This document shows, piece by piece, positions 1 to 16,069 of a stretch of 64,000 nucleotides of DNA; position 1 is the stretch's first letter; each line of letters begins with the position of its first letter. The notes beneath the pieces are model-generated. The model searched no databases, was not told the DNA's origin, and saw only the letters and a list, made by a program, of their open reading frames with translations. Origin of the DNA: Nitrospirota bacterium (GTDB lineage: Bacteria; Nitrospirota; Thermodesulfovibrionia; Thermodesulfovibrionales; Dissulfurispiraceae); NCBI GenBank assembly GCA_963710375.1, contig CAVPZX010000002.1, positions 576,001 to 640,000 on the forward strand. Reading direction: 5' to 3'. The position numbers and the translations under genes are program-made.

Positions 1-549
1 AAGAATGAATAGAATGAAGATCCACATCCCAAGGTAGTGCCACATCCTTACATAGGACAAGCCTCCCATCATGTTAGTGAACCATGCGAACAGGTTTGCA
101 CCGTGCAGGAACCCGAATGCATAGCCCCTGTAAAGAGCAGACCCCGACACCCCCATAAAAATTATCATCAGGCCCATAAAGAGATACCCCAAAGCCTGAA
201 GTGGATTGTATCTCCCGGTGTCCTTGTAGGTGCCTTTTATGAAGAGGTAATAAGCGAGTGTATCAGGAACGCCGGCAAGGTTTTTCCCTATACCGAAATC
301 CTTCCAGTCGGCTGAGAATCTTGAGTTAAAAGCCAGATACACTCTTACTATAAATCCCAGCACCAGCGCGTATGCCGCAAGTATATGGAAGCACCTCATC
401 CATACATACACATAACTGTCAGGCCCCCCTTTTATGAACGGCGAATGGGTGAAGAAGCCCGTGAATATGAGTATCCCGATTGCTATAACCCTGACCCAGT
501 GGTCGATCCTGTATGCCAGGTTCCATTCATATTTCATTTCGTTTCCCAT
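1..549 (-). CDS. Ni/Fe-hydrogenase b-type cytochrome subunit (3' end outside the window)
   Basis: Not in the ORF track. Manual translation from the ATG at 549 reads MGNEMKYEWNLAYRIDHWVRV...MRCFHILAAY...RYNPLQALGY...VRMWHYLGMW and stays open to base 1. It has transmembrane His heme ligands and the YNPLQ motif, and follows the large subunit. Confidence 0.9.
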   Translation of the reverse strand, partial: MGNEMKYEWNLAYRIDHWVRVIAIGILIFTGFFTHSPFIKGGPDSYVYVWMRCFHILAAYALVLGFIVRVYLAFNSRFSADWKDFGIGKNLAGVPDTLAYYLFIKGTYKDTGRYNPLQALGYLFMGLMIIFMGVSGSALYRGYAFGFLHGANLFAWFTNMMGGLSYVRMWHYLGMWIFILFIL

Positions 550-560
550 GGCATCCCCCC

Positions 561-2152
561 TTAAGAGACCTTGAATTCCATTATGCGATTAGATTCAGGA
601 TGGATCACATGTACCGTACATGCGAGACAGGGATCGAAAGAATGAACAACCCTCAATATTTCCAGAGGTTTATCGGCAACAGCCACTGGCGTTCCAATAA
701 GGGCTTCCTCGATCGGGCCCCTTACGCCGTTGTCATCCCTTGGACACACATTCCACGTTGTAGGCACAACGCACTGGTAGTTCTTGATCTTTTTCCCTTG
801 GACATCTATCCAGTGGCCCAATGCGCCCCTCGGCGCCTCCCAAAGACCGATCCCTTTTGCACTGTCAGGTATCTCGTAAGCAGTATAAACATCTGCATTG
901 CCTTTTTTGATGTTCTCGATGATTTCGAGGCCCCACTGGGTCATGCTATCGGCAACCATCTTACACTCAAGCGCCCTTGCTGCAATCCTTCCGATCACTC
1001 CTAAAAGCACCTGGGGCTGTCCCGCATGACCGATAGCAGCCAAAGTACCGTTAATAAGCTTCTGAACTGTCGGCTGGCCGGACGCATATGCCACCAGCAT
1101 CCTTGCGAGCGCACCGACTTCCATCGGCTTATTTTTCAGTCTTGGGGCTTTGGCCCACGTATATTTCTTGTTTTCGTCATAACCCGTATATTCAGGATCT
1201 GTTTCTCCAACTGCAGGATTGAGCGGTTTGGAATCCTTATACCAACTGTGCGAGGTGTGCTCTGACACATCCTCCGGCTTTGCCTCATGGACCTTTGGAA
1301 AGTCTTCAGCAAAAATCGCGCCTCTTGGCAGCAATCTTTTCTTTGGATCATAAGACGCATCCTCGAATACTCCCCATGACAGGAAATTGGCATGACCTTT
1401 GCCGACCCCTGCATAATCCAGATAATAAGGGGCAACAGCCAGGACATCGGGAATATACACATTATCTACCCAGTCCTGGAGTCTTTCGTCCTGAAAAGGA
1501 AATCTTTCATGTCCTCAATACTCGGAACGTGAGTACATCCCCCTGGAGGGCTGGTCATTGTCATAGGCATTCTTCCGCCAAAAATAGCACTGACTTGAGA
1601 TGCCCTTGATTGCATATTGAGCGCTTCGAGATAATGTGCAACAGCAAGGAGATTGATATCAGGCGGCAGTTTGTAAGCAGGATGCCCCCAATAAGCGTTT
1701 GCAAAAGGTCCGAGCTGCTTTGATTCTACAAAGGCCTTTAATTTCTCCTGGACTCTCTTGAGAGATGTCTCCTTCGGCTGGGCCTTGAGAGCAGATACAA
1801 CATCGACATAATCAAGCGCCGTAAGGTGATAGAACCACAGTATATGGGAATGGACGAACTGGGCGCCCTCAATAATATTTCTGAGCAGTCTTCCATTTGA
1901 AGGGGGTTTCGCCTTAAAAGCGTCATCCATGCTCATGGAAGACGCATGGCCATGAGAAGTGGGACATACGCCGCAGATTCTCTGTGTCAGGTGCCATGCA
2001 TCCCGCGGGTCCCTACCCTGAAGAATAATTTCAAAGCCCCTGAAAAGTGTGCCTGAAGTCCACGCATCCTTAACCTTGCCGCCCTCAATTTCGACATCCA
2101 GCTTAAGATGCCCTTCTATCCTTGTAATAGGATCAATTGTCAGCCTTGCCAT
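561..2152 (-). CDS. [NiFe]-hydrogenase large subunit, group 1; split by a single-base deletion at about 1480
   Basis: ORF 1466-2152 has RIEGH and the L1 motif RICGVCPTSH. ORF 561-1460 has EAPRGALGHW, the L2 motif DPCLACTVH and a 15-aa cleavable tail. Adding one base at GAC-TC-CAG restores ...RTKDxQDWVDNVYIPD. Confidence 0.92.
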
Positions 2153-3258
2153 TATTTTTCACCTCCCTCATCTTTACCCTTCAATCTTCCTGATGCCGCA
2201 GACCCCAACGCATGGACTGCTATGCCCGCCACGGTCACAATTGCCGCAGTCGCGCCAATTTTCTCTGTTGTAGCCTGGTAACCCGCCATTTTGACATCCG
2301 GCAGCCTTTTGTAGAATCCCGCAAATTTGTCAGGCCATCCCGGTTCTGCACAGCCTATGCATGGCCCTCCTGCTCCAATGCACCAGCTGACCCGGTTGTT
2401 GTATCTTACCTTCGGACATGCAGAATATGTCATTGGTCCCTTGCAGCCCATCTTAAACAGACAATATCCAAGCGCCTCTTCCTTCGATCCGAACTTCTCT
2501 ACAAACCTGCCTCCGTCGAAGTGAGACCTGCGCTCACAATTTTGATGAATCGGCTGGCCGTAAAACATTTTAGGTCTTCCTACACTATCGAGTTCAGGCA
2601 GTTTTCCGAGAAGCAGGTAATTTACGATGACCGCGGTAAGGAATTCGACGTTCACAGGACAGAGGTCGAGATTGACAAAAGGCTTGTCGATTCCTACTTT
2701 CTTAAGCGCAGCTGATACGCCGATTATCTGTGAGGGGTTTGGAGCTGCCGACGGCACACCGCCATAGGTGGCGCAGCTTCCTACTGCCAGAATCGCTACT
2801 GCTGGGCCTGCAAATTCTTTAAAAATGTCTATCATCTCCTTGCCGCCGATCGTTCCGAACCCTTTCCTGGTAGGCATACCACCTTCTATTACAAGGATGT
2901 AGCCGCCTGCTTTTCTTGAGGTATCAAGTATTTCTTCAGCTTGTTTACCTGCGGCAGCCTGAATTGTTTCATTGTAATCAAGACTAAGCACATCAAGAAC
3001 CAGGTCGGCCGCACTAGGATATGTCGCTTTGATAAGCGCTTCGGTACAGCCGGAATCAGAAGCAAAATTAAGCCATACAACAGGAGGCCGCTTTGACGCT
3101 TTTTCTATTGCCGCAGCTATCTTTGGAGTATATAGCTCCGACAAACCGAGGAGAGCTGCTGTAGCTCCGCAATACTTCAGGAAATCCCTTCTGTTGACAC
3201 CGCGAAACTCAATTGCATCCAGAAACTTCTTGGTGATTCCATCATCGTTCTCTGCCAT
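2152..3258 (-). CDS. [NiFe]-hydrogenase small subunit, Tat-exported, with C-terminal membrane anchor
   Basis: RRDFLK twin-arginine signal; GSCATYGG, HQNCERR, CLFKMGCKGP and PCIGC motifs; C-terminal TM helix; GGAGG RBS. Confidence 0.95.
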   Translation of the reverse strand: MAENDDGITKKFLDAIEFRGVNRRDFLKYCGATAALLGLSELYTPKIAAAIEKASKRPPVVWLNFASDSGCTEALIKATYPSAADLVLDVLSLDYNETIQAAAGKQAEEILDTSRKAGGYILVIEGGMPTRKGFGTIGGKEMIDIFKEFAGPAVAILAVGSCATYGGVPSAAPNPSQIIGVSAALKKVGIDKPFVNLDLCPVNVEFLTAVIVNYLLLGKLPELDSVGRPKMFYGQPIHQNCERRSHFDGGRFVEKFGSKEEALGYCLFKMGCKGPMTYSACPKVRYNNRVSWCIGAGGPCIGCAEPGWPDKFAGFYKRLPDVKMAGYQATTEKIGATAAIVTVAGIAVHALGSAASGRLKGKDEGGEK

Positions 3259-3348
3259 AGTCCATCCTCCCTATTTTTGTTGGGGTTTCATAAAAAAAGC
3301 CAAGAATTCCAAATGTTCATATATTGACTGATACACTTTTGTGGCATG

Positions 3349-3378
3349 AGCATACAATATGTTAAAACATGATGTCAA
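3349..3378 (-). promoter_or_regulatory. Candidate sigma70 promoter of the hydrogenase operon
   Basis: Minus strand reads TTGACA-N18-TATGCT about 90 bp upstream of the small-subunit ATG. Confidence 0.5.
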
Positions 3379-3462
3379 GACCCATTTCGAACAGCAGATT
3401 TCTAAGTGATGCGTTACTATCTTGCATCCTCCGGAAATCTGAAGTATTATTGAATTGATCTC

Positions 3463-5403
3463 ATGAAAAAGAACCTTACTCATAAGATTCTGGAAGCACA
3501 CCTGGTGGAGGGTGAGTTAATACCCGGCAGCGAGATCGCCATCAAAATCGACCACACACTTCTGCAGGACGCTACCGGAACTCTCGCCATGCTGGAGTTC
3601 GAGGCCTTGGGGCTTGAGCGGGTAAAGGTTGAATTGGCAGCGCAATACGTGGACCATAATCTCCTCCAGACAGATAACAAAAATGCTGACGATCACAAGT
3701 TCCTCCAGACCGCTGCGGCCAGGTACGGCATCCATTTCAGCAAGCCGGGTAATGGCGTCTCGCACCAGGTCCACATGGAGCGCTTCGGAGTTCCCGGCAA
3801 AACGCTTTTGGGCGCTGACAGTCATACTCCGGGGGCCGCAGGCGTCTCCATGCTGGGGATTGGCGCCGGTGGTCTGGATGTGACCCTGGCCATGGCCGGC
3901 TACCCATATTATCTCCCTTGCCCCAAAGTCCTCGGGGTAAGGCTCACAGGCAAACTCCCGGACTGGGTGAGCGCCAAGGACGTGATACTCGAGATGCTCA
4001 GACGTTATGATGTGAAGGGTTGCGTGGGCAAGATCATCGAGTATTACGGACCGGGAGTCAAATCTCTTTCCGCCACGGACCGCGAAACTATAGGGAACAT
4101 GGGCACCGAGACCGGTGCAACAACATCCATATTCCCGTCCGATGATAGGACGCTGGAGTATTTGTCGGACCAGGGACGGGGAGGCAACTGGATCAGTCTT
4201 GCCGCCGATGAGGATGCGGGATACGATGAAGATGCAGAGATAGACCTTTCAAAACTCGAACCGCTCATTTCAAAGCCGTCGTCTCCAGGAAATGTGGTCA
4301 CCGTGCGCGAAGTGGCAGGCAAGAAAGTAGACCAGGTGATAGTAGGAAGCAGCGTGAACTCTTCTTTCCGGGACCTCATGGTGGCAGCAAGGATGCTCGA
4401 AGGCAGACGGGTTCATCCGGAAACAAATTTTCATGTTAATCCCGGAAGCCGTCAAGTGATCGAGAACGTTGCCCAGGCAGGCGGACTTATGGCGTTCCTC
4501 CTGTCAGGGGTGCGTTTGCATGAGCCTGGCTGCCAGGGATGCATAGGCATGGGCCAGGCGCCAGGGACCGGAGAGGTAAGCCTTCGGACCTTTCCCCGTA
4601 ATTTCCCGGGCAGGTCCGGGACCAAAGACGACAAAGTCTACCTCTGCTCTCCTGAGACGGCAACAGCGGCGGGGTTGAAAGGGGTAATCACAGACCCCAG
4701 GGATATGGCGAAAGAGATGGAATATCCGAAGATAGAAGACCCGAAAAAATATACGATCGACGAAAAATCAATCATTTTCCCGACACATGAACTTATAAAA
4801 ACAGTGGTGATAAGAGGGCCAAACATCAAGCCCCTGCCGGACCTTGAACCCCTTACTGAAATTCTTGAAGCAGAGGTGGTGCTCAAGGTGGGCGACAACA
4901 TCTCGACCGACACAATCATGCCCGCAGGCAACAAGGTGCTGCCGTTGCGTTCGAATATCCAGGCGATAAGCGAACATGTGTTCGAGCAGATCGAACCAGG
5001 TTTTGCCGCTGAGTGCAGATCGAAAGGCGTCGTAGTCGTGGTAGGGGGAGAGAATTACGGCCAGGGGTCCAGCAGAGAGCATGCAGCGTTGGCGCCGCGT
5101 TATCTCGGGGTACGCGCAAAGATCGTGAAGAGCTTTGCACGCATCCACAAGTCCAATCTCTGCAATTTCGGTATCCTTCCTCTCACCTTTAAAGACCCTA
5201 AAGACTATGACCGGTTAAGCAAGGGTGCGAATGTCGTATTCCGCGATGTTCGCACCCGTATTAAGAAAGGCGACCGGGAGATTCCGGTTGAAGTGGATGG
5301 ACAGACTGTCATCACTGTCCTGGAAGTGTCCGAACGCCAGAGGAAGCATCTGCTGGCAGGAGGGACGCTGAATTTTGTAAAAAATGAAATACGTAATAGG
5401 TGA
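3463..5403 (+). CDS. Aconitate hydratase (single-chain, about 650-aa type)
   Basis: QDATG, DHN, GADSHT, GCQGCIGMG, RTFPRNFPGRSG, ISTDTIMP and NYGQGSSREHAA motifs. Confidence 0.93.
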   Translation: MKKNLTHKILEAHLVEGELIPGSEIAIKIDHTLLQDATGTLAMLEFEALGLERVKVELAAQYVDHNLLQTDNKNADDHKFLQTAAARYGIHFSKPGNGVSHQVHMERFGVPGKTLLGADSHTPGAAGVSMLGIGAGGLDVTLAMAGYPYYLPCPKVLGVRLTGKLPDWVSAKDVILEMLRRYDVKGCVGKIIEYYGPGVKSLSATDRETIGNMGTETGATTSIFPSDDRTLEYLSDQGRGGNWISLAADEDAGYDEDAEIDLSKLEPLISKPSSPGNVVTVREVAGKKVDQVIVGSSVNSSFRDLMVAARMLEGRRVHPETNFHVNPGSRQVIENVAQAGGLMAFLLSGVRLHEPGCQGCIGMGQAPGTGEVSLRTFPRNFPGRSGTKDDKVYLCSPETATAAGLKGVITDPRDMAKEMEYPKIEDPKKYTIDEKSIIFPTHELIKTVVIRGPNIKPLPDLEPLTEILEAEVVLKVGDNISTDTIMPAGNKVLPLRSNIQAISEHVFEQIEPGFAAECRSKGVVVVVGGENYGQGSSREHAALAPRYLGVRAKIVKSFARIHKSNLCNFGILPLTFKDPKDYDRLSKGANVVFRDVRTRIKKGDREIPVEVDGQTVITVLEVSERQRKHLLAGGTLNFVKNEIRNR

Positions 5404-5409
5404 TGGGTA

Positions 5410-6582
5410 ATGGATAAGGTAAAGAATATTGGACTGCGCGGTGTTACGGTCGCTGACACTAAAATCAGCCACGTCGACGGTGAAAACGGAATTCTCATCT
5501 ACCGGGGCTTCCAGATCGAAGAGCTTGCCCGGAGTTCTTCATTCGAGGAAACGGCTTATCTGCTTCTATATGATGAGCTTCCAAACAAGCAACAACTGGA
5601 GGAGTTCAAGGGCAAGCTGGCCGGGGAGCGGAGCGTCCCGGCTTTCATATTTGAAACTTTCAGGCTACTGCCGGGAAAGGCCCAACCAATGGATATACTC
5701 CAGGCATCCATACCACTCCTTGCCACGGATGATCCCGGTCTGGAGTTGGAAACACGCGAAGCTAACATTGCTAAGGCCATCAGGCTCATCGCTCTTATAC
5801 CGGCTTTGGTGGCCGGCTGGGACCAGATACGTAAGGGCCTGGAGCCTATGCCTCCTGATAATGCACTGTCCCATGCAGGCAATTTTTTATGGCAGCTTAC
5901 GGGCCAGAGGCCTGATACTGAGACATCACGAGATCTCGATACAGCGCTGTTGCTCCACGCTGATCATTCGTTCAATGCATCGACGTTTGCATGCCGCGAG
6001 GTGGTGTCCACGCGGGCGCACATGTATGCAGGGGTTGCGGCAGGCGTTGGCGCACTTTCCGGTAGCCTCCACGGCGGCGCCAATGCACAAGTAATGAAGA
6101 TGCTCCTGGGACTCCGGAACGTTGAGGACATTGCCGGGTGGGTAAGGACTCAACTCGACAGCGGACAGAAGATAATGGGCATGGGCCACGCGGTTTACAA
6201 GACTATGGACCCGAGGGCCCGTTTCCTGAAGGACATGTGTTTCAGACTGGGGAAAAAGCTTGGGCAGGAGCACTGGTGCCGGCTGTCGTCCCAGATCGAG
6301 GAGAGTGCGGTGGCGGAATTCGAGAAAAGGGGCAAGACCACGATCAAACCGAATGTCAACTTTTACAGCGCCGCGGTTTACCATATGATGGGGATTCCGC
6401 TCGACCTGATGACGCCCATCTTTGCCATAGCACGGGTTGCAGGATGGACGGCGCACATCATCGAGGAGAAATTCGGAGATGCCCAGGGAAAGCCGGCTCT
6501 TTACCGGCCCTCTTCCGAGTATGTGGGCAATTACTGCGGCAAGACCGGCTGCACTTATACACCGATAGAGGAAAGGCGGTAA
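5410..6582 (+). CDS. Citrate/2-methylcitrate synthase family protein (catalytic Asp reads as Asn)
   Basis: GLRGV, LIYRG, HADHSFNAST, LHGGAN and GMGHAVYKTMDPRA motifs. The usual PNVDFY motif reads PNVNFY. Confidence 0.9.
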   Translation: MDKVKNIGLRGVTVADTKISHVDGENGILIYRGFQIEELARSSSFEETAYLLLYDELPNKQQLEEFKGKLAGERSVPAFIFETFRLLPGKAQPMDILQASIPLLATDDPGLELETREANIAKAIRLIALIPALVAGWDQIRKGLEPMPPDNALSHAGNFLWQLTGQRPDTETSRDLDTALLLHADHSFNASTFACREVVSTRAHMYAGVAAGVGALSGSLHGGANAQVMKMLLGLRNVEDIAGWVRTQLDSGQKIMGMGHAVYKTMDPRARFLKDMCFRLGKKLGQEHWCRLSSQIEESAVAEFEKRGKTTIKPNVNFYSAAVYHMMGIPLDLMTPIFAIARVAGWTAHIIEEKFGDAQGKPALYRPSSEYVGNYCGKTGCTYTPIEERR

Positions 6583-6585
6583 GAA

Positions 6586-7968
6586 ATGATACGCGGGACT
6601 AAAAGAAAGCTGCAATCAATCAATCCCTATACAGGGGAAGTAATGCGGGAATTCGGACTCGTGACCGGACAGACGATTAATAAAGAAATAGCTCTTTCGC
6701 GAAAAACATTTTCCACATGGCGCGCCACGCCTGTCTCCGAACGGTCAAGCTACGTAAAAAAGTTGGCCGTACATCTCCGGGCGGAGAAACGGACCTATGC
6801 GGAACTGATGACAAAGGAAATGGGCAAGGCCTTCAGGGAGTCGTTGGGGGAGATCGAGAAATGCGCATGGCTCTGCGACTACTACGCGGAGAATGCCCCG
6901 AAGTTCCTGGAGACCGAGCATGTCACGACAGAGGCGGTGAAGAGTTATATAAGATTTGATCCGCTGGGGATCGTGCTCGCGATCATGCCGTGGAATTTCC
7001 CTTTCTGGCAGGCGTTCCGGTTCGGCATCCCGGCGATCTGCGCCGGGAACGTAGTGGTACTGAAACACGCATCCAATGTGCCGATGTGTGCCCTTGCCAT
7101 CGAAGACTCGTTCAAGAAAGCCGGATTCCCGGACAATGTTTTCAAGACGCTGCTCATCGACGCTAAGGACGCACTCAGTCTCATCGATGGTGACAAGATC
7201 GATGCGGTATCGCTCACAGGGAGCAACAAGGCAGGAGAGGAAGTCGGCGCCCATTCCGGAGGAAAGATCAAGAAAATGGTGCTGGAGCTTGGCGGCTCTG
7301 ATCCGTTCATCGTGCTTGAGGATGCAGACATTGAAAAGGCGGGGCGGACAGCGGTCAGTGCCCGAATGCTTAACGCCGGTCAGAGCTGCATAGCTGCAAA
7401 GCGCTTCATAGTTCATGAGAAAATAGCTGCGGAATTCAGTAAACACTTCGTCGCGCGCCTCAGAGAACTGAAGATCGGCGATCCCATGGATGAGTCAACT
7501 GATATCGGCCCGGTTGCAAAGCCTGACATCCTCAACTCCCTGAAAAAGCAGCTCAGGGACGCCAAAGCAAAAGGCGCTGAAGTTATACAGTTAGAACATT
7601 CCTTAAAAAAAGGGCTCTTCTTTGCGCCCTGTGCTGTATATAAAGCAACAAAGAAGATGAAGGTCCTTACCGAAGAGGTGTTCGGACCGATTGCGACCAT
7701 TATAATTGTTAAGGATGAGGATGAGGCGGTAAACGTGGCAAACGATACAGAGTTCGGCCTAGGCGCATCCATATGGAGCAGGGACCACGATCGGGCTGAA
7801 AAACTGGCGGCGAGACTGGAAGCGGGCTGCATAGCCATAAACGATATGGTGAAGTCAGACCCGCGTCTGCCCTTCGGAGGGATAAAGAAATCCGGGTTCG
7901 GCAGAGAGCTGTCGCATTACGGGCTGAAGGAGTTCGTGAACATCAAAAGCGTGGTCGTGAGAGAGTAG
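6586..7968 (+). CDS. NAD(P)-dependent succinate-semialdehyde dehydrogenase (Sad/GabD1-like aldehyde dehydrogenase)
   Basis: [46 protein letters not shown] and [14 protein letters not shown] motifs. Confidence 0.88.
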
Positions 7969-7970
7969 AA

Positions 7971-9602
7971 ATGAAGGCATCCGATCTCTTTGTGAAGCAA
8001 CTCGAAGAAGAAGGGGTGGAATACATATTTGGCCTGCCGGGAGAGGAAAACCTCGACTTCCTCGAATCCCTCCGGACCTCATCCATCAAAGTAATTATTA
8101 CTCGCCACGAGCAGCCGGCTGCATTCATGGCCGCGACCTATGGAAGGCTCACAGGAAAGGCAGGGGTCTGCTTCTCTACGCTTGGTCCCGGCGCATTGAA
8201 CCTCGTTACCGGTGTGGCCCACGCTCAGCTTATCGGCGCGCCGCTGGTTTCGATCTCCGGCCAGAAGGCACTCAGAGCGAACTGGCAGGCGCGGTTCCAG
8301 CTGGTCAACGTGGTCGAAGTGATGAGGCCCATTACCAAAGACTCAGTCTCCATCGTTGATCCGGACACCATCCCCACTGTTTTAAGGAATGCCTTTTCGT
8401 TGGCACAAACAGAACGGCCTGGAGCAGTACATCTGGAACTGCCGGTGGACGTTGCTGTTAGCCAAACCAACGCGCAGGTGCAGAAACGGGGATTCACGCG
8501 GAGGCCGGCGCCGGATACCAAGTGCATCACACAGGCAGCCGAACTGATTAACAAAGCTCAGTTCCCCTTGATCATTCTCTCGTCAGGGGCCAACAGGAAC
8601 CAGGTCTGCCGGCAGCTGACGCATTTCATCAATAGGACAGGCATCTACGCGATACATACACAGATGGGGAAAGGCGTTCTGAGCGATGACTCTGAATACA
8701 GCCTCTTCGCAACCGGCATTCACCGTCGTGATTACGTGAATTGCGGAATCGACAGGGCCGATGTGATCATAACGATCGGATACAATATCGTTGAATACCC
8801 GCCATATGTATGGAACAAGAACCTCGACAAGAAGATCATAAATATAGACTTCGCAGAAGCGCCGGTGGACAAATACTACAATCCCGAAATCGACATTATC
8901 GGCGATATTTCATGCGCTCTCAGGCAACTCGGGGAGATTATAACCCCCAAGGAAAACACCGGGACATTCAAGGTCGTGCGGGAATTCCTTAACCGGAAAC
9001 TCGCGCCTGATTTCAATAAACAGTATCCTTTGACACCGCAGGAGGTCGTGTTTCGTGTGCGGGAGGTCCTGTCGCACCAGGATATCCTGACACTTGACAA
9101 TGGAATCTACAAGCTGTGGTTTTCCCGCCTCTACCGTACTTACAGACCTAACACGTTCCTGCTGGATAATGCGCTGGCAACAATGGGCGCAGGACTTTCC
9201 GCCGGCATCATGGCCAAGATGCTTAAGCCCAGTCTGAACGTGCTGGCTGTCGTGGGAGACGGCGGGTTCATGATGAACGCCCAGGAGCTTGAGACCGCGC
9301 TTCGATATAGTGTACCACTCGTAGTCCTGATCCTAAACGACAATGCCTTCGGTTTCATTAAGTGGGAACAACAGGCCAAGGGATTTCCCGGCTTCGCCCT
9401 GGATTATTCCAATCCGGACTTTGTCAAGTATGCTGAAAGCTATGGGGCCGTGGGAGTGAAGGTAAAGGAGGGAGATGATCTGTCAGAACTCTTACGCAAG
9501 GCGTTTGCGCTCAAGAAACTTGTCATTATCGAATGTCCGGTCGATTATTCGGTCAACCTGGAAACCTTCTCAAAAGAACTAGCCAACATCGTCTGCGAAT
9601 AA
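7971..9602 (+). CDS. ThDP-dependent acetolactate-synthase-like enzyme; candidate 2-oxoglutarate decarboxylase
   Basis: IFGLPGEENL, RHEQ, STLGPG, LLDNALATMGAG and the ThDP motif GDGGFMMN...LNDN. No ilvN/ilvH partner; adjacent to SSADH. Confidence 0.8.
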   Translation: MKASDLFVKQLEEEGVEYIFGLPGEENLDFLESLRTSSIKVIITRHEQPAAFMAATYGRLTGKAGVCFSTLGPGALNLVTGVAHAQLIGAPLVSISGQKALRANWQARFQLVNVVEVMRPITKDSVSIVDPDTIPTVLRNAFSLAQTERPGAVHLELPVDVAVSQTNAQVQKRGFTRRPAPDTKCITQAAELINKAQFPLIILSSGANRNQVCRQLTHFINRTGIYAIHTQMGKGVLSDDSEYSLFATGIHRRDYVNCGIDRADVIITIGYNIVEYPPYVWNKNLDKKIINIDFAEAPVDKYYNPEIDIIGDISCALRQLGEIITPKENTGTFKVVREFLNRKLAPDFNKQYPLTPQEVVFRVREVLSHQDILTLDNGIYKLWFSRLYRTYRPNTFLLDNALATMGAGLSAGIMAKMLKPSLNVLAVVGDGGFMMNAQELETALRYSVPLVVLILNDNAFGFIKWEQQAKGFPGFALDYSNPDFVKYAESYGAVGVKVKEGDDLSELLRKAFALKKLVIIECPVDYSVNLETFSKELANIVCE

Positions 9603-9804
9603 ATTTATACAAGGAGCAGTCAGCCCACAGTGCTTCACTCAACTGCCACCCCAAAGGTCTTCGACCTTTCGGGGACCCCGTCTTCTCGCAAGGCATCCAG
9701 CCTTGCTCCGAGGCTATGACAGCCTCTGTCACCATCCTTGGTGTCTCTTAGGCTGTCAAAGTCCGCTCAGCACCATGGCCCGCCTGCTCCTTGTATAAAT
9801 TTAT
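9599..9804. mobile_element. MITE-like palindromic element with perfect 21-bp terminal inverted repeats
   Basis: ATAAATTTATACAAGGAGCAG (9599-9619) and CTGCTCCTTGTATAAATTTAT (9784-9804). Internal hairpins include GCAAGGC-ATCCA-GCCTTGC and AGGCT-ATGAC-AGCCT. Confidence 0.7.
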
Positions 9805-9820
9805 AAATAATATGGTTATC

Positions 9821-9872
9821 TTGAACAAGCAATAAGGCTTGTGATATTCTAAATGTAAATGAATTCTATTTA
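9821..9872 (+). promoter_or_regulatory. sigma70 promoter overlapped by a Zur/Fur-box-like 23-bp palindrome
   Basis: TTGAAC-N18-TATTCT with a TG extension. TAAATGTAAATGAATTCTATTTA (9850-9872) resembles the Zur box TAAATCGTAATNATTACGATTTA and lies just before zur. Confidence 0.6.
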
Positions 9873-9873
9873 T

Positions 9874-10290
9874 ATGAAATACTATCTGGATGTTCTCAAA
9901 CAGAACGGTTTGAAAATCACCCCTAAACGCAGGGCGGTCATCGATTTGTTTTTGAAGAACAACAGGCGTATGGGGCCGCGTGAGGTTTATCAAAAACTTA
10001 GGAAAGATATTGCCCCTTTGGGTTTGCCTACGGTTTACAGAATTCTGGAGCAGTTAAAAAACATAGGAGTCTTAATGCAAATACCTTCCGAGGACAGGCA
10101 ATTGTATTATGTGTTATGCAAGATGCCCGATGGGCACCACCATCATTTTGTCTGCAGAGGATGCAGGCGGGTGGAAGAAGTCGAGTATTGCAATTTCGGT
10201 GCTGTTTCGAAGTTTATCGAGAAGAATTTGAACGGAAAGGTAGAACAACATTTTTTGCAAATAGAGGGTCTGTGTTCTAAATGCAGGTGA
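9874..10290 (+). CDS. zur: Fur-family regulator, probably Zur
   Basis: KITPKR, TVYRIL, HHHHFVCRGC and GLCSKC motifs; first gene of a Zn ABC transporter operon. An alternative ATG lies at 9859. Confidence 0.85.
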   Translation: MKYYLDVLKQNGLKITPKRRAVIDLFLKNNRRMGPREVYQKLRKDIAPLGLPTVYRILEQLKNIGVLMQIPSEDRQLYYVLCKMPDGHHHHFVCRGCRRVEEVEYCNFGAVSKFIEKNLNGKVEQHFLQIEGLCSKCR

Positions 10291-10310
10291 AAAATCTTAT
10301 TATAAGTAAC

Positions 10311-10506
10311 TGTAATTCAGACAGTGAGGATAAGTCTCTTGCGCTCAGACGCTCCGTCTTGACAGTTCTAACGGCTCGTTTCGCTACAGGCGCAAAATTC
10401 ACCCTGCGGGATTCAGTTTCGCGCCTGTTTAACGCTCTCTCGCCGAGAACTGTTACCAAGACTGCGCGATTCGCTTCAGAGACCCATCCTCACTGTCTGA
10501 ATTACA
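10311..10506. mobile_element. Rod-like palindromic element (MITE/REPIN-like) with perfect 21-bp terminal inverted repeats
   Basis: TGTAATTCAGACAGTGAGGAT (10311-10331) and ATCCTCACTGTCTGAATTACA (10486-10506). Nested pairs: GTCTCT/AGAGAC, GTCTTG/CAAGAC, ACAGTTCT/AGAACTGT, ACAGGCGC/GCGCCTGT. Confidence 0.75.
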
Positions 10507-10508
10507 TT

Positions 10509-11408
10509 ATGAATAAAACCAGCCTGCGCCCTTTTGTGATGTTAATAATCATGTTTTTGTTTGCGTCAGTGGCCGGTTGCAAACACGAGACCGCCCAGGA
10601 AACAAAAAAGATCAAGGTGGTCGCTTCTTTTTATCCCATGTATATAATGGCACTCAATGTAATTAAAGACGTTCCTGAAGTGTCCGTAAGCAACCTCACT
10701 CCGCCAATGACCGGTTGTTTACATAACTATACATTGACGACCGATGATGTGAAAAAGCTGGCAGATGCCCAGGTCTTTGTTGCCAATGGGGCAGGCATGG
10801 AGTCTTTTCTTGACCGCGTTGTAGCCCAATACCCGCAAATTAAAATTATAAAATTAGCAGATGGAATCCCGCTTATCAAGGGTGAGGGTGAAGAGACGGA
10901 CAATCCGCATGTATGGGTGAGCATATCCCTCGCTATTGCCGAAGTTAAAAATTTCGGTAAAGACATGGAGAAGTTCGACCCTGCTCACGCGGACTTGTAT
11001 CGCAAGAATACCGGGGCTTATGTTGAAAAGCTGGAGACATTACGCCAAAAAATGAGAAAGGAAATGGCCCCCTATAAAGGACGAAAGATCATTACATTTC
11101 ATGAAGCGTTCCCTTATTTTGCACAAGAGTTCGGGCTCGAAATTTCGGCTGCGGTAGAGAGAGAACCTGGAAGCGAGCCGAGCGCCAGGGAACTCTCAAG
11201 GACTGTGGATTTGATCAGAAAGGCAGGTATCAAAACCTTGTTCAGCGAGCCCCAATACCCTGCTACAGCCGCCGATACTATCGCCAGGGAAACCGGGGCT
11301 AAAGTTTATATGCTCGACCCAGCAGTTACTGGCCCGAATGATCCTGACGCCTATATCAATATCATGGAAAACAACCTTGAGGTATTAAAAAGTGCTTTCT
11401 CCAGATAA
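10509..11408 (+). CDS. znuA: Zn/Mn ABC transporter substrate-binding lipoprotein
   Basis: Lipobox VAGC and LHNY, NPHVW, FHEAFPYF motifs. Start re-assigned to ATG 10509 because the longer ORF reads through the palindromic element. Confidence 0.88.
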   Translation: MNKTSLRPFVMLIIMFLFASVAGCKHETAQETKKIKVVASFYPMYIMALNVIKDVPEVSVSNLTPPMTGCLHNYTLTTDDVKKLADAQVFVANGAGMESFLDRVVAQYPQIKIIKLADGIPLIKGEGEETDNPHVWVSISLAIAEVKNFGKDMEKFDPAHADLYRKNTGAYVEKLETLRQKMRKEMAPYKGRKIITFHEAFPYFAQEFGLEISAAVEREPGSEPSARELSRTVDLIRKAGIKTLFSEPQYPATAADTIARETGAKVYMLDPAVTGPNDPDAYINIMENNLEVLKSAFSR

Positions 11409-12204
11409 CGAAGAGATCGAAAGTCCTGCGGGCGATAAGCTCTGCCGGCACTGTTGTATCAAGGTCAGTGATCTGACGGTCCGTTTAGGCAACAAGCCTG
11501 TTCTTGATAATGTCAACCTGCATATTCATTGCGGTGAGGTTGTTGCTATTGTAGGTCCCAACGGCGCAGGAAAAACCACTCTGTTACGGACGATATTAGG
11601 GGAATTACCTTATCGCGGCGCCATGGAATCGCGTATTGGCGGTATTGAAGGCAGGATCCCACGAATTGGATATGTTCCCCAAAACCTACATCTCGATCTG
11701 GATTCTCCCATTAATGTCACTGATCTGGTTGTCCTGGCAATCAGCAAGCATCCTGTTTGGCTCGGGGTGACCAGGAGGTTGTCGGAGGAAGCCCGGCACG
11801 TGCTGTCTGTCTTTTCTGCCGGGCATTTGGCAAAAAAAAAGATCGGCGAACTGTCAGGAGGAGAATTGCAACGTGTGTTGCTCGCCATTGCGATGACAGC
11901 GGAGCCGGAATTACTGCTCCTGGACGAACCCGGCAGCGGAGTGGATATTCAGGGGTTGTCTCTGTTTTATCAGCTTGTCAGAAGTTTAAGGGAACAACAT
12001 GACATCGCAGTTATCATTGTGACCCATGACCTGGCCGGCATCTCAACCTATGTTGACCGCATTATTCTCCTGAATCATTCGGTTGTTGCTGAAGGCGAAC
12101 CGGCCAAAGTGCTTTCCAACGAGAAAATACTTAAGACCTTTGGCCCCAGTCTTTGGAACATTTCCGCGATGCCTACCTTGCCGTACCTGAAAGAACAGCT
12201 ATGA
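11392..12204 (+). CDS. znuC: Metal ABC transporter ATP-binding protein
   Basis: GPNGAGKTT, IGYVPQ, LSGGELQR, LLLDEP and VTHD motifs. Confidence 0.9.
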   Translation: MLSPDNEEIESPAGDKLCRHCCIKVSDLTVRLGNKPVLDNVNLHIHCGEVVAIVGPNGAGKTTLLRTILGELPYRGAMESRIGGIEGRIPRIGYVPQNLHLDLDSPINVTDLVVLAISKHPVWLGVTRRLSEEARHVLSVFSAGHLAKKKIGELSGGELQRVLLAIAMTAEPELLLLDEPGSGVDIQGLSLFYQLVRSLREQHDIAVIIVTHDLAGISTYVDRIILLNHSVVAEGEPAKVLSNEKILKTFGPSLWNISAMPTLPYLKEQL

Positions 12205-13055
12205 TTGATCTATGGTACAAATTGGCTGATTATGTGCTGCCCTTTGATTTAGCGCGGTATATTTTCATAAAAAATGCCCTACTGGCAGTCCTTCTTGTTA
12301 CGCCGGTATTCGGAGTCTTGGGTACCATGGTGGTAAGCAACCGGATGGTTTTTTTTACCGAGGTTTTGGGACATTCGGCCCTTACCGGGATCGCCATAGG
12401 TGTTCTTTGCGGAATTCATGACCCGACGTTCCCGATGATTACTATTGCTGTGGTCCTGGCTGTCCTCGTAAACATTCTGAAAGATATGACGCGTGCATCC
12501 ATGGATAATGTTCTCGGGGTGGTTCTTGCGTTTATGATAGCGCTGGGAATCACTATCTTAAGCAGGCAGGGAGGATTTGTTAAATTCACTACCTATCTTA
12601 TTGGAGATATTCTTGCAGTTACCCCCCAACAAATCGCCTGGATAGCAGCCTTATTCGTTGTTGTGTTTCTTTATTGGTACTTTGCAGGCAATGCTTTGAT
12701 TTTGACGAGCGTCAGCGGATCGTTGGCTCGAAGCCGCAGGATAAGGACATTTCTGGTTGAGACAAGTTTTACCATACTGCTTGCCGTGGTGGTGATGGTG
12801 TCTATCCGTCTGGTGGGGATTTTGATTATAAATTCACTCCTGGTTTTACCTGCGGCAGCCAGCCGCAACCTTGCTCGAAGTGTGGGCTCGTATACGGCAT
12901 TTTCAATAGCAATAAGTATGCTGTCAGGGACAACTGGGTTATTCGCGTCTTACTATTGGGGCACTGCATCCGGAGCCACCATAGTTCTTTTCGCTGTAGG
13001 ATGTTACACAATATCGGCCCTGACAGGTCGCTTCCGGCATAAATTATTTATCTAA
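12201..13055 (+). CDS. znuB: Metal ABC transporter permease
   Basis: Hydrophobic ABC-3 permease (LGHSALTG, YLIGDIL, LVLPAAA); ATGA overlap with the znuC stop. Confidence 0.88.
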   Translation: MIDLWYKLADYVLPFDLARYIFIKNALLAVLLVTPVFGVLGTMVVSNRMVFFTEVLGHSALTGIAIGVLCGIHDPTFPMITIAVVLAVLVNILKDMTRASMDNVLGVVLAFMIALGITILSRQGGFVKFTTYLIGDILAVTPQQIAWIAALFVVVFLYWYFAGNALILTSVSGSLARSRRIRTFLVETSFTILLAVVVMVSIRLVGILIINSLLVLPAAASRNLARSVGSYTAFSIAISMLSGTTGLFASYYWGTASGATIVLFAVGCYTISALTGRFRHKLFI

Positions 13056-14591
13056 CTGGGCACTGTTTATAAACTTCGCCACGTCACGCCGTAGTTGGGA
13101 AATGGCGTCGCTGTCCAGATACATCATATGACCTGTCCGGTATCGTTGCGTAGTGACATTCTTTCCGAATACCGGCGTTATTCCCAGATGTGCCAGGGTA
13201 TATTCCGTGGCAAAATAAGGAGTTGCCAGGTCAAAATAGCCGCAGGCGAAAAACAGCTTCATATAGGGGTTCTTGTCAAGTGCGTTTCGCAGGTCCTCAC
13301 CGGTTTCGGCATAGCTGTTTTTGGCCTCCCAGTCCCATTTCCCGGTGCCCCCTCCCAAAGTAAAATATTCCAGGTCAGACTGGAAGCCTAGCTCGCCACG
13401 AACATAATCGTTGAACATTGCAGTAAAGGGAGGGCGGATTGCCGCAACAGTCGGATCAAAACCGACTGGCGCCGCTGGATCAAGGTCCGCCGCGGTAAAA
13501 CGGGTGTCCATGAAACCTACAAACCTCCTCTCTTTTCGAAGAAGCTCTTTAACAAAGCTGCCGGGATCAATGCGCAGATTGTGTTTGTCGATAAAGGTCT
13601 TGTCGAGTCCGGTAAATCCGGCCAGCTTATCAACTACTGCCTGTCGCTCTTCAGGTGACAGATGGTCCCCTTTGGCAAGGGCTGTTAAATAATCGGTGGC
13701 AGCCCAGGCCTCAACCGATTCCAGGGTCTTGTCCAGGTCAGCATGTGGCACAAGCTTTTTATGATACCAGGCCGTCGCAGCGTAACTGGGGAGTGACAAA
13801 ACGTATGCGAGATCATTACCGTTATTATAAGAGGTGGTCTGCGCATTCAGGATGGTAGAGACCATGATAATGCCGTTTAAGGCGATTCCATGATCAACCA
13901 GATACTCCGACAGGCCTGCAGCCCGAAAAGTGCCGTAGCTCTCCCCAACAAGAAAGAGCGGTGATCTCCATCGCTCATACCGGGTCAGATAAAGCCTGAT
14001 GAACCTTCCAATAGATTCAATATCACCCTGCACCGAGGCAAATTTTTTGGTAAGCTCAGGCTTGATGGCCCGACTATAGCCGGTACCAACCGGATCGATA
14101 AAGACAAGGTCGGCCTGATCCAGCCAAGTGAACTCGTTGTCCACCAGCTGGTATGGCGGCGGTGGCATGCTGCCATCAGCAAGCATTTGGACACGCCGGG
14201 GGCCGGCAGCTCCAAGGTGCAGCCAAACTGAAGAAGCGCCGGGACCGCCGTTAAATATGAACAAGAGGGGCCGTAGGCTGGCAGGAGTTGAGTTATGGAC
14301 CGTGTAGGCGATAAAAAAAATATGTGCTTCCTTTTCGCCGGCATCGTTCATTATCGGCAGTTGGCCTGCCGTTGCAGTATAGCTTATTTCCTTTCCCCCG
14401 ACAACAATTTTATGACTGGTAACAACAGGTTTTGTCTCGGGCATCTCATTCTTAACCTTTTCCGGCTGCTTTTCGCCAACCTTGTCCTGATCAGCAACAA
14501 TAGCTGTCTCTGACACCTGCGGTGACGAAGGGGTGGGAGCGCCGGCCATCAGCACCGTTGCGAGCAGTATCGATAAGAACAAATTGGTCAC
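13044..14591 (-). CDS. Peptidase S10 family serine carboxypeptidase, secreted
   Basis: Signal peptide and FNGGPG, FIDPVGTGYS, GESYG, DLATP, GHMMY motifs. Confidence 0.9.
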   Translation of the reverse strand: MTNLFLSILLATVLMAGAPTPSSPQVSETAIVADQDKVGEKQPEKVKNEMPETKPVVTSHKIVVGGKEISYTATAGQLPIMNDAGEKEAHIFFIAYTVHNSTPASLRPLLFIFNGGPGASSVWLHLGAAGPRRVQMLADGSMPPPPYQLVDNEFTWLDQADLVFIDPVGTGYSRAIKPELTKKFASVQGDIESIGRFIRLYLTRYERWRSPLFLVGESYGTFRAAGLSEYLVDHGIALNGIIMVSTILNAQTTSYNNGNDLAYVLSLPSYAATAWYHKKLVPHADLDKTLESVEAWAATDYLTALAKGDHLSPEERQAVVDKLAGFTGLDKTFIDKHNLRIDPGSFVKELLRKERRFVGFMDTRFTAADLDPAAPVGFDPTVAAIRPPFTAMFNDYVRGELGFQSDLEYFTLGGGTGKWDWEAKNSYAETGEDLRNALDKNPYMKLFFACGYFDLATPYFATEYTLAHLGITPVFGKNVTTQRYRTGHMMYLDSDAISQLRRDVAKFINSAQLDK

Positions 14592-14645
14592 CTCCTGCCA
14601 TTGAATTAATTATTATCCTAACACGGTTCTGCCATTTTGTGTCAT

Positions 14646-14738
14646 AAGGCCGTGAATTGTGAATGGTGAAGCGTGAATGGTAAAAGGCTTTTTTTCTGTT
14701 TCTCATTCACTATTCACCCATTCACCATTCACGGCCTT
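14646..14738. repeat. Inverted heptamer-repeat element (GTGAANN)n...(NNTTCAC)n
   Basis: AAGGCCGTGAATTGTGAATGGTGAAGCGTGAATGG ... ATTCACTATTCACCCATTCACCATTCACGGCCTT, with AAGGCCGTGAA/TTCACGGCCTT termini. Confidence 0.8.
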
Positions 14739-14828
14739 TTCTTTTAGAGGCCAACTTTAGTCTTGCCTTTTGTCCTTTTAGCCTCCATTATATTATTATG
14801 GTTAGCGAAGTTTAAAACGAGAGATTAT

Positions 14829-15857
14829 ATGAAAAAGAATAATATTGCATACAAGGGACTTGAGCGTAAACTGGAAAGGCTCAATGCAGAGGCTGAGACT
14901 TCTCTGGAATGGATGTTAGGCAAGAGCGACAAAATGAAAGAGGTAATCGAACAGATACGCCGAATCTCGAAGACGGATTTTACAGTCCTGATCCAGGGAG
15001 AAACCGGTGTTGGGAAGTCATTTATTGCCAACATTATTCATAACTTAAGCCGACGTGCTCACCATCCGTTTATAAGAATTGATATGGGAACTATACCCGA
15101 GACCCTTTTTGAAAGTGAACTTTTCGGGTATGAGAAGGGAGCGTTCACAGGCGCTGACAAAAACAGAAAAGGCTATTTTGAGCTTGCAGCCGACGGTGGG
15201 ACCATATTTGTTGATGAACTAGAAAATATGACCCCATATGCACAGAGCAAGTTTCTCACAGTTATCGAGGAAAGGAAAATACATCCCCTGGGAAGCGCCG
15301 AATCAAAGGACATAAATGTCCGCTTTATTTCCGCAACAAACAGGGACATAAAGCAGGCATTGGCGGAAAAACATATCAGGAATGACCTGTTTTACCGTCT
15401 CAGTGAATTTATCATAACTATTCCGCCATTGAGAGAGAGAGTTGATGACATACCTTTTCTCGCTCAGAAATTTCTTATGGAAGCAGAAGAAAAATTGAAT
15501 GCCCCACTGAAGAATTTCAGTGAAGAAATATTTGAAGCTCTCAAGCGCTATCCCTGGCCGGGTAATGTCAGGGAATTAAGAAACATTATTATAAGAAGAT
15601 CTGTGCTCATGTCCCAAAATCAGTCAGTAAAGCTCAGGGACATAGAACTTTTACTCGAGGACAACACGGGAAAGACAGAGTCTATCGATCTGTTGCCGCT
15701 TAAGGAACTTACCAAAATAGCTGTCAGGGATGTTGAAAGAAAGGCAATTAAAAAGGCTTTGGACTTGACAAGGGGCAATAAGTCAAAAGCTGCCTTGATC
15801 CTGCAGGTGGATTACAAGACACTTCTCACAAAGATTAAAGAATACAACCTTTCCTAA
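14829..15857 (+). CDS. sigma54-dependent transcriptional activator (AAA+ and Fis HTH) lacking an N-terminal sensor domain
   Basis: [37 protein letters not shown] and GNKSKAA HTH; only about 30 aa precede the AAA+ domain. Confidence 0.9.
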   Translation: MKKNNIAYKGLERKLERLNAEAETSLEWMLGKSDKMKEVIEQIRRISKTDFTVLIQGETGVGKSFIANIIHNLSRRAHHPFIRIDMGTIPETLFESELFGYEKGAFTGADKNRKGYFELAADGGTIFVDELENMTPYAQSKFLTVIEERKIHPLGSAESKDINVRFISATNRDIKQALAEKHIRNDLFYRLSEFIITIPPLRERVDDIPFLAQKFLMEAEEKLNAPLKNFSEEIFEALKRYPWPGNVRELRNIIIRRSVLMSQNQSVKLRDIELLLEDNTGKTESIDLLPLKELTKIAVRDVERKAIKKALDLTRGNKSKAALILQVDYKTLLTKIKEYNLS

Positions 15858-15952
15858 AGGCAGGTTAAGGTTATGGTAGAGGTTAAGAAAATACAAAAAA
15901 AATTTCGGGTTATATCTTTGCCTCTACCTTAACCTTAACCTATACCTGCTTT
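15857..15952. repeat. Inverted hexamer-repeat hairpin (GGTTAA/GGTAGA), possibly a terminator
   Basis: AAGGCAGGTTAAGGTTATGGTAGAGGTTAAG ... CCTCTACCTTAACCTTAACCTATACCTGCTTT. Confidence 0.7.
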
Positions 15953-15960
15953 TAGTGTTT

Positions 15961-16069
15961 TATGGATTCAATTCCATTAATTATGGGGTAAATTCCATAG
16001 TATACCAAAAGTTTAATTCAAGAAATATCCATTAAATTCAAGAGTAAGTCAATTGGCATTCTTCTTGAT
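15961..16069 (+). promoter_or_regulatory. Candidate activator sites plus sigma54 -24/-12 promoter
   Basis: Tandem palindromes TATGG-N8-CCAT(T/A) at 15961 and 15982. TGGCAT-N5-TTGAT at 16054-16069, where the -12 deviates from TTGC. Confidence 0.5.

Follow-up and report, generated by a model that had tools for sequence, protein, structure and literature searches.

The four-gene locus

The window analysed here is a stretch of 64,000 nucleotides from a Nitrospirota bacterium of the Dissulfurispiraceae (GenBank assembly GCA_963710375.1, contig CAVPZX010000002.1, positions 576,001 to 640,000 of the forward strand). Within it, an aconitase, a citrate synthase, a succinic semialdehyde dehydrogenase (SSADH) and a thiamine diphosphate (ThDP)-dependent enzyme are encoded one after another, and these genes probably constitute one operon that would run an oxidative citric acid cycle through a predicted 2-oxoglutarate bypass of the OgdA/SsaD type. 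The features at the locus are as follows.

3463-5403, + strand: aconitase, single-chain PRK07229/TIGR01342 type; 646 residues; NF005558 958 bits (cut-off 612)
5410-6582, + strand: citrate synthase, Si-type (type II-like); 390 residues; PF00285; TIGR01800 411 bits (cut-off 421)
6586-7968, + strand: SSADH, SsaD/Sad type, predicted to prefer NADP; 460 residues; best PDB matches 3vz1/3vz2/4it9
7971-9602, + strand: ThDP enzyme, PRK08322, annotated 'acetolactate synthase'; 543 residues; NF006187 770 bits (cut-off 509)
3259-3462: intergenic region between the divergent hydrogenase and aconitase genes; presumed promoter
2152-3258, divergent from the operon: NiFe hydrogenase small subunit, Tat-type

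The initial annotation had described four co-oriented genes with gaps of only 6, 3 and 2 bp, which the coordinates of the open reading frames confirm, and co-transcription of the four as one operon is likely. It had also noted that the operon is richer in G+C than its surroundings; the values are 53.4% for the operon versus 48.1% and 46.5% for the left and right flanks, and 47.4% for the genome (z = 2.5; equally high in 1.05% of 1049 same-sized segments of the genome). The G+C content at third codon positions of the four genes (0.61-0.64) falls at the 93rd to 96th percentile of 1326 long open reading frames. Its remaining observations on the operon hold as well: neither a regulatory subunit nor ilv genes were seen among the genes adjacent to that of the ThDP enzyme, and isocitrate dehydrogenase is encoded outside the operon, on contig C8. 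No + strand promoter consensus was found in 3259-3462, a scan for promoters and terminators was uninformative (nine promoter-like sites versus 5.7 expected and four terminators versus 6.6 expected), and positions 1-16000 of the window gave no Rfam match.

Conservation and distribution of the gene order

Gene order was surveyed in the best 80 loci among 364 relatives of the host genome (G000; 3.19 Mb, 98.8% complete). All four genes recur in the same order and orientation in 32 of these loci, so that the arrangement, whose conservation elsewhere the initial annotation had left to such a survey, is not peculiar to this genome; the SSADH gene lies upstream of the ThDP gene in 11 further loci. Where at least 4.7 kb of upstream sequence was available (40 close loci), the set was complete in 30. 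The order is thus conserved far beyond chance. The closest loci carry the labels Nitrospirota or Dissulfurispiraceae, the host thus being probably a member of the class Thermodesulfovibrionia, and the same order was found in Syntrophorhabdales and Syntrophaceae. In one relative (G006; L173, L174), the whole operon is present twice. No paper on a ThDP/SSADH pair with aconitase in Nitrospirota turned up in the open-access literature searched.

The distribution of the operon is patchy: a homologue of the ThDP enzyme with at least 65% identity is present in six of the 151 genomes of the class, G000 counted. An ancestral aconitase (approximately 50-55% identity) occurs in nearly all relatives; in G000 and the majority of its genus, only the operon type is present. 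Coupled with the raised G+C content, this pattern suggests that the operon was gained laterally as a cassette.

Other arrangements of these genes exist. Aconitase and citrate synthase genes are found without the SSADH/ThDP pair in G018, G028 and G041. One protein (P0126) is a natural fusion of a ThDP domain to an aldehyde dehydrogenase (ALDH); a second apparent fusion, of SSADH to the ThDP enzyme in locus L062, was rejected because its junction is a run of N. In Methanosarcina (L039), genes for SdhA, SdhB and an aspartase/fumarase follow the SSADH/ThDP pair. Genes for an aconitase and a citrate synthase of other kinds than here lie back to back, in G097 and G116, with those for a member of another branch of the subfamily and for an ALDH of another type. 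These contexts bracket the reaction: at the locus studied here the pair follows genes leading to 2-oxoglutarate, and in Methanosarcina it precedes sdhAB.

The ThDP enzyme

For comparison with the cyanobacterial 2-oxoglutarate decarboxylase, 20 metagenome loci with a 550-residue product were used as KGD proxies in place of a named cyanobacterial sequence. All 14 residues numbered for the Microcystis enzyme in PMC10418658 are matched by these proxies, and 19 of the 20 match its C-terminus too. A KGD proxy scores 877 bits on NF006187, so that both it and the ThDP enzyme are members of PRK08322. The ThDP enzyme scores below the cut-offs for AlsS (444 versus 510, and 407 versus 551 bits) and for IlvB (TIGR00118; 368 versus 538 bits), and no small subunit is encoded beside it; the same genome encodes a true ilvB and its small subunit on contig C3. 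In an IQ-TREE phylogeny of 39 chosen rows, 35 PRK08322-type rows exclude AlsS and IlvB with support of 98/98, albeit with a long-branch warning at AlsS and IlvB. Within PRK08322, two subfamilies with different pocket motifs were distinguished, a split with which a FastTree phylogeny of 109 rows agrees. The Microcystis residues for catalysis and cofactor binding (E50, M410, D435, D462) correspond to identical residues here, E47, M405, D430 and D457.

The AlphaFold model (pLDDT 94.6) gave by Foldseek a shared ThDP fold only, the nearest solved folds being those of AlsS (TM 0.95 at 32% identity), and the ESM Atlas returned 'acetolactate synthase' clusters only. No assayed member of this branch was found in the literature searched. 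The enzyme is likely a 2-oxoglutarate decarboxylase.

Many relatives (L012-L026, L028, L030) possess additional PRK08322 paralogues, at 39-46%, whose pocket motifs resemble the cyanobacterial ones. Beside the three of these examined with wide flanks (L176, L179, L180), no SSADH gene was seen.

The semialdehyde dehydrogenase

The best PDB matches of the SSADH are to the enzyme of Synechococcus (3vz1/3vz2/4it9; E about 1e-136). The residues studied in cyanobacterial SsaD are W130, N131, W135, R139, K154, S157, E228, C262 and S419, of which W135, R139 and S419 bind the carboxylate of the substrate and S157 and K154 serve NADP (PMC7510979). All nine are kept in the SSADH of the operon, as W136, N137, W141, R145, K160, S163, E234, C268 and S424. 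The three carboxylate-binding residues are conserved in 48 of 60 aligned rows; the other 12 represent a different ALDH type, and within the SSADH's own group conservation is complete (48/48). A tblastn search of G000 for a second SSADH gave this locus alone, and no glutamate decarboxylase (PF00282, group II pyridoxal-phosphate enzymes) that might feed SSADH through a gamma-aminobutyrate shunt was found in that genome.

Aconitase and citrate synthase

The aconitase retains two of the three canonical cysteine ligands of the Fe-S cluster. Ser297 (codon 4351-4353) takes the place of the first ligand, Cys358 of pig aconitase; about 100 residues further on there is a new conserved cysteine, Cys395 (codon 4645-4647). 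All operon-type aconitases share Ser297, with Cys395 invariant (37/37), while in the ancestral aconitases of the class position 297 is Cys and position 395 is Ala or Thr (10/10). A sister subfamily, approximately 55% identical, combines the Ser with the Cys in 119 of 120 proteins; its named members are mostly aerobes (Methylobacter, Nitrosomonas, Nitrosococcus). Among four plasmid-borne copies, the Ser/Cys combination occurs in Azotobacter and Haladaptatus, and Cys/Val in Monoglobus and Ilyobacter. Given this co-variation, we infer from the alignments that the first cluster ligand has been relocated to Cys395.

In this assembly, the citrate synthase carries Asn317 (6358-6360) in place of the catalytic Asp, which is present in 46 of 46 other aligned homologues; its His motifs are kept. 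An otherwise identical protein with Asp317 (P0275) was seen on five contigs. Since other one-base slips occur in this genome, Asn317 is probably an assembly error rather than a sign of decay.

The remainder of the cycle

Inventories of SucA, KorA, terminal oxidase and dsrA were compiled for 61 genomes, and 36 other carriers of the pair were examined separately. SucA was found in none of the 61 relatives and in none of the 36 carriers. The initial annotation had asked for a search of the genome for sucAB and korAB, and neither SucA nor a two-subunit KorA was found in G000. Two-subunit KorA occurs in 42 of the 61 relatives: in one of the 10 genomes of the genus of G000 and in 41 of the 51 outside it. 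The other enzymes of the cycle are encoded, namely an NADP-dependent isocitrate dehydrogenase, SdhAB, a FumA-type (class I) fumarase and malate dehydrogenase, together with PDH, PFOR, IOR and a third citrate synthase. With neither SucA nor KorA found, these enzymes encoded, and the pair placed before sdhAB in Methanosarcina, a bypass of the OgdA/SsaD type is likely.

A propionate cluster lies at 210-229 kb of contig C3 (L122, L123, L187). It encodes methylmalonyl-CoA mutase, MeaB, a carboxylase and SucCD with PrpC, AcnA, PrpE and SdhAB, and stands under a PrdR-like sigma-54 regulator.

Terminal oxidase and dsrA

G000 possesses a cox operon whose subunit I is a heme-copper oxidase with the motif SHPxVY, presumably of the A2 type. 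No dsrA was found in this genome at 98.8% completeness, while the gene is present in 55 of the 61 genomes searched and in eight of the nine other genomes of the genus. Since it combines such an oxidase operon with the lack of a detected dsrA, strict anaerobiosis is improbable for the host, and the placing of the bypass 'in an anaerobe' by the initial annotation is doubtful. Compared with G003, the subunit I gene (L164:5548-7189, contig C3) shifts frame near its 3' end, at about residue 480, downstream of all the His motifs.

An A-type oxidase accompanies the pair in nine of nine relatives, versus 12 of 52 relatives without the pair, and a heme-copper oxidase was found in 28 of 30 further Nitrospirota carriers. 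The association of operon and oxidase across genomes is suggestive only, the kin not being independent. For Synechococcus, peak activity of the bypass is described during aerobic respiration in the dark (PMC5160925).

Interpretation

Citrate synthase and aconitase would convert acetyl-CoA and oxaloacetate to isocitrate, the ThDP enzyme would decarboxylate 2-oxoglutarate to succinic semialdehyde, and SSADH would convert this to succinate, with the cycle completed by four enzymes encoded outside the operon, the NADP-isocitrate dehydrogenase, succinate dehydrogenase, fumarase and malate dehydrogenase. Flux through such a bypass would be one-way and require no CoA, lipoate or ferredoxin; it would make NADPH and no substrate-level ATP. 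As oxygen respiration arose in the lineage, the cassette would likely have replaced, in this genus, both the aconitase of ancestral type and the two-subunit 2-oxoacid:ferredoxin oxidoreductase. Support for the bypass comes from family membership, the SSADH residues, the conserved gene order, the independent citric acid cycle contexts and the lack of a detected SucA or KorA in this genome. The bypass packaged with aconitase and citrate synthase that the initial annotation envisaged is partly supported, the ThDP enzyme not grouping with cyanobacterial OgdA itself.

Several observations weigh against a cycle closed in this way, the first of which concern the ThDP enzyme itself. The phylogeny called for by the initial annotation places it outside AlsS and IlvB, as proposed, but in a sister subfamily to cyanobacterial OgdA: it is separated from the KGD proxies on a branch with 100/100 support that holds Methanosarcina, Syntrophales and proteobacterial proteins, and is 42% identical to the Microcystis-type proxies over the full length. 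Only two (K386, A408) of the six 2-oxoglutarate contacts (Q254, V382, K386, A408, L467, K471), which derive from docking on a model, are identical, and an IlvB-like FQ is found where KGD has HQ. Its best PDB sequence match and closest solved relative, 13bb, was named an acetolactate synthase by its depositors. With the catalytic residues kept, it is best regarded as related to OgdA and probably alike in function, rather than as a demonstrated member of that group. Close homologues also occur without an adjacent SSADH gene (G020, G028, G084, G088 and Syntrophales). The SSADH falls under the PRK09406 equivalog cut-off (536 versus 730 bits), as does the one beside a KGD proxy (676), and the Asn317 of the citrate synthase, if genuine, would count here too. 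With regard to oxygen, none of the six non-Nitrospirota carriers (syntroph, deltaproteobacterial and methanogen) gave an oxidase match, and the link is not independent since seven of the nine pair-bearing relatives belong to one genus. Finally, KorA is present in 24 of the 36 other carriers, for which reason a strict replacement of KorA by the bypass was rejected, and G000 itself has a possible ordinary route in SucCD and a split VorB-type oxidoreductase (L116:6020-7063 and L133:1465-2777; alpha alone on contig C4, beta and gamma on C3).

The last two points are those expected if the pair had the proposed chemistry and another purpose, draining 2-oxoglutarate or supplying succinate and NADPH alongside a functional ferredoxin oxidoreductase, without closing a respiratory cycle. 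The NADP-determining Ser of the SSADH and the carriage of the pair by methanogens and syntrophs lacking an oxidase match would agree with such a role. It is nevertheless unlikely: the pair is packaged with genes for citrate synthase and aconitase, enzymes that replenish the 2-oxoglutarate pool and do not deplete it; KorA is lacking in nine of the 10 genomes of this genus, where the operon is common; and SucCD lies within the methylmalonyl-CoA/propionate cluster.

Alternatively, the ThDP subfamily might act on other or a broad range of 2-oxo acids, or carboligate 2-oxoglutarate, with the ALDH removing the resulting aldehydes. The four differing contacts, the FQ motif and the separate branch would be explained thereby; moreover, proteobacterial members pair with the ALDH type lacking W135, R139 and S419 (the 12 of 60 rows), and some with an alcohol dehydrogenase. 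This too seems improbable: the partner SSADH keeps every residue for binding the semialdehyde throughout its group, the pair appears in three separate citric acid cycle contexts, and, besides the origin of the contacts in docking, the position of K471 is itself variable within the clade (Glu in 51, Lys in 23).

A catabolic acetolactate synthase serving pyruvate overflow, as annotated, is favoured by the NCBIfam and database names and by the AlsS-like fold, and such an enzyme needs no small subunit. We consider it very improbable, as the protein misses the AlsS cut-offs and lies outside AlsS in the tree, no acetolactate decarboxylase (AlsD) was found in G000, and a KGD proxy bears the same family name. 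A methylcitrate (propionate) role for the operon's citrate synthase and aconitase is scarcely credible: the best family of the former is 2-methylcitrate/citrate synthase II and the genome has propionate genes, but a separate PrpC (PRK12351, 632 bits; cut-off 550) is encoded with AcnA and PrpE on C3, the operon citrate synthase scores only 292 on that model, and the operon contains no further gene.

Beyond the OgdA/SsaD-type cycle, we can offer only tentatively, and as something that may well not hold, a wider proposal. The operon would be a laterally spread, oxygen-tolerant kit for the cycle, combining a predicted decarboxylase subfamily free of CoA and ferredoxin with an aconitase whose relocated cluster Cys is a form found mostly in aerobes; it would have displaced the ancestral aconitase and oxidoreductase as Nitrospirota derived from sulfate reducers took up oxygen respiration.

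Flanking genes

The initial annotation had remarked on a divergent uptake hydrogenase. The NiFe small subunit gene is real; its adjacency was found only in some genomes of the same genus. A functional link between operon and hydrogenase was rejected, with close adjacency in L046, L174 and L175 only, a distant copy (43%) in L032 and none in L031 or L033. The large subunit gene (561-2152, - strand) is split into two open reading frames of 228 and 299 residues with a break near 1460-1480; the spacing relative to L046 points to a slip of one base, probably introduced in assembly. Downstream of the operon (9859-13055, + strand) are genes for a Fur/Zur-type regulator and a ZnuACB-like metal ATP-binding cassette transporter, an adjacency also seen in G005.

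Comparison with known systems

The chemistry of the OgdA/SsaD bypass is itself already known, and related genes in methanogens and anaerobes were reportedly noted by Zhang and Bryant in 2011. Added here are the split of the subfamily, the association with oxidases and the aconitase variant, the apparently relocated ligand of which may bear on oxygen tolerance. Were the proposed bypass correct, reconstructions that call the cycle incomplete in Nitrospirota, some syntrophs and Methanosarcina would be wrong, as would their counting of the ThDP gene toward branched-chain amino acid synthesis; were the kit proposal also correct, thousands of proteins of this subfamily named 'acetolactate synthase' would be 2-oxoglutarate decarboxylases. 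The operon offers the cleanest test case for the large uncharacterised half of PRK08322.

The aconitase resembles the PRK07229/TIGR01342 and mitochondrial enzymes in its DH, DSH, SSREH and RIH motifs and CxxC ligands, and differs from them in the Ser at the first cluster Cys and the new invariant Cys about 100 residues on. With AlsS (B. subtilis 4rjj) and IlvB, the ThDP enzyme shares its fold (TM 0.95) and ThDP motifs, and with IlvB the FQ motif; unlike them, it is only about 30-35% identical, falls below the family cut-offs and outside both in the tree, and coexists with a separate ilvBN. The closest parallel is the cyanobacterial bypass of OgdA/KGD and SsaD, known from Synechococcus sp. PCC 7002 (A2770/A2771) and Microcystis (MAE_06010) (PMC5160925, PMC10418658 and PMC7510979). 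Common to the two are an NCBIfam ThDP family, cofactor and catalytic residues, an adjoining SSADH with the nine studied residues and a host without SucA. The predicted Nitrospirota decarboxylase differs in its 42% identity, sister subfamily and pocket motifs, and its genes, unlike those of the cyanobacteria, are co-located with citrate synthase and aconitase in a non-photosynthetic host.

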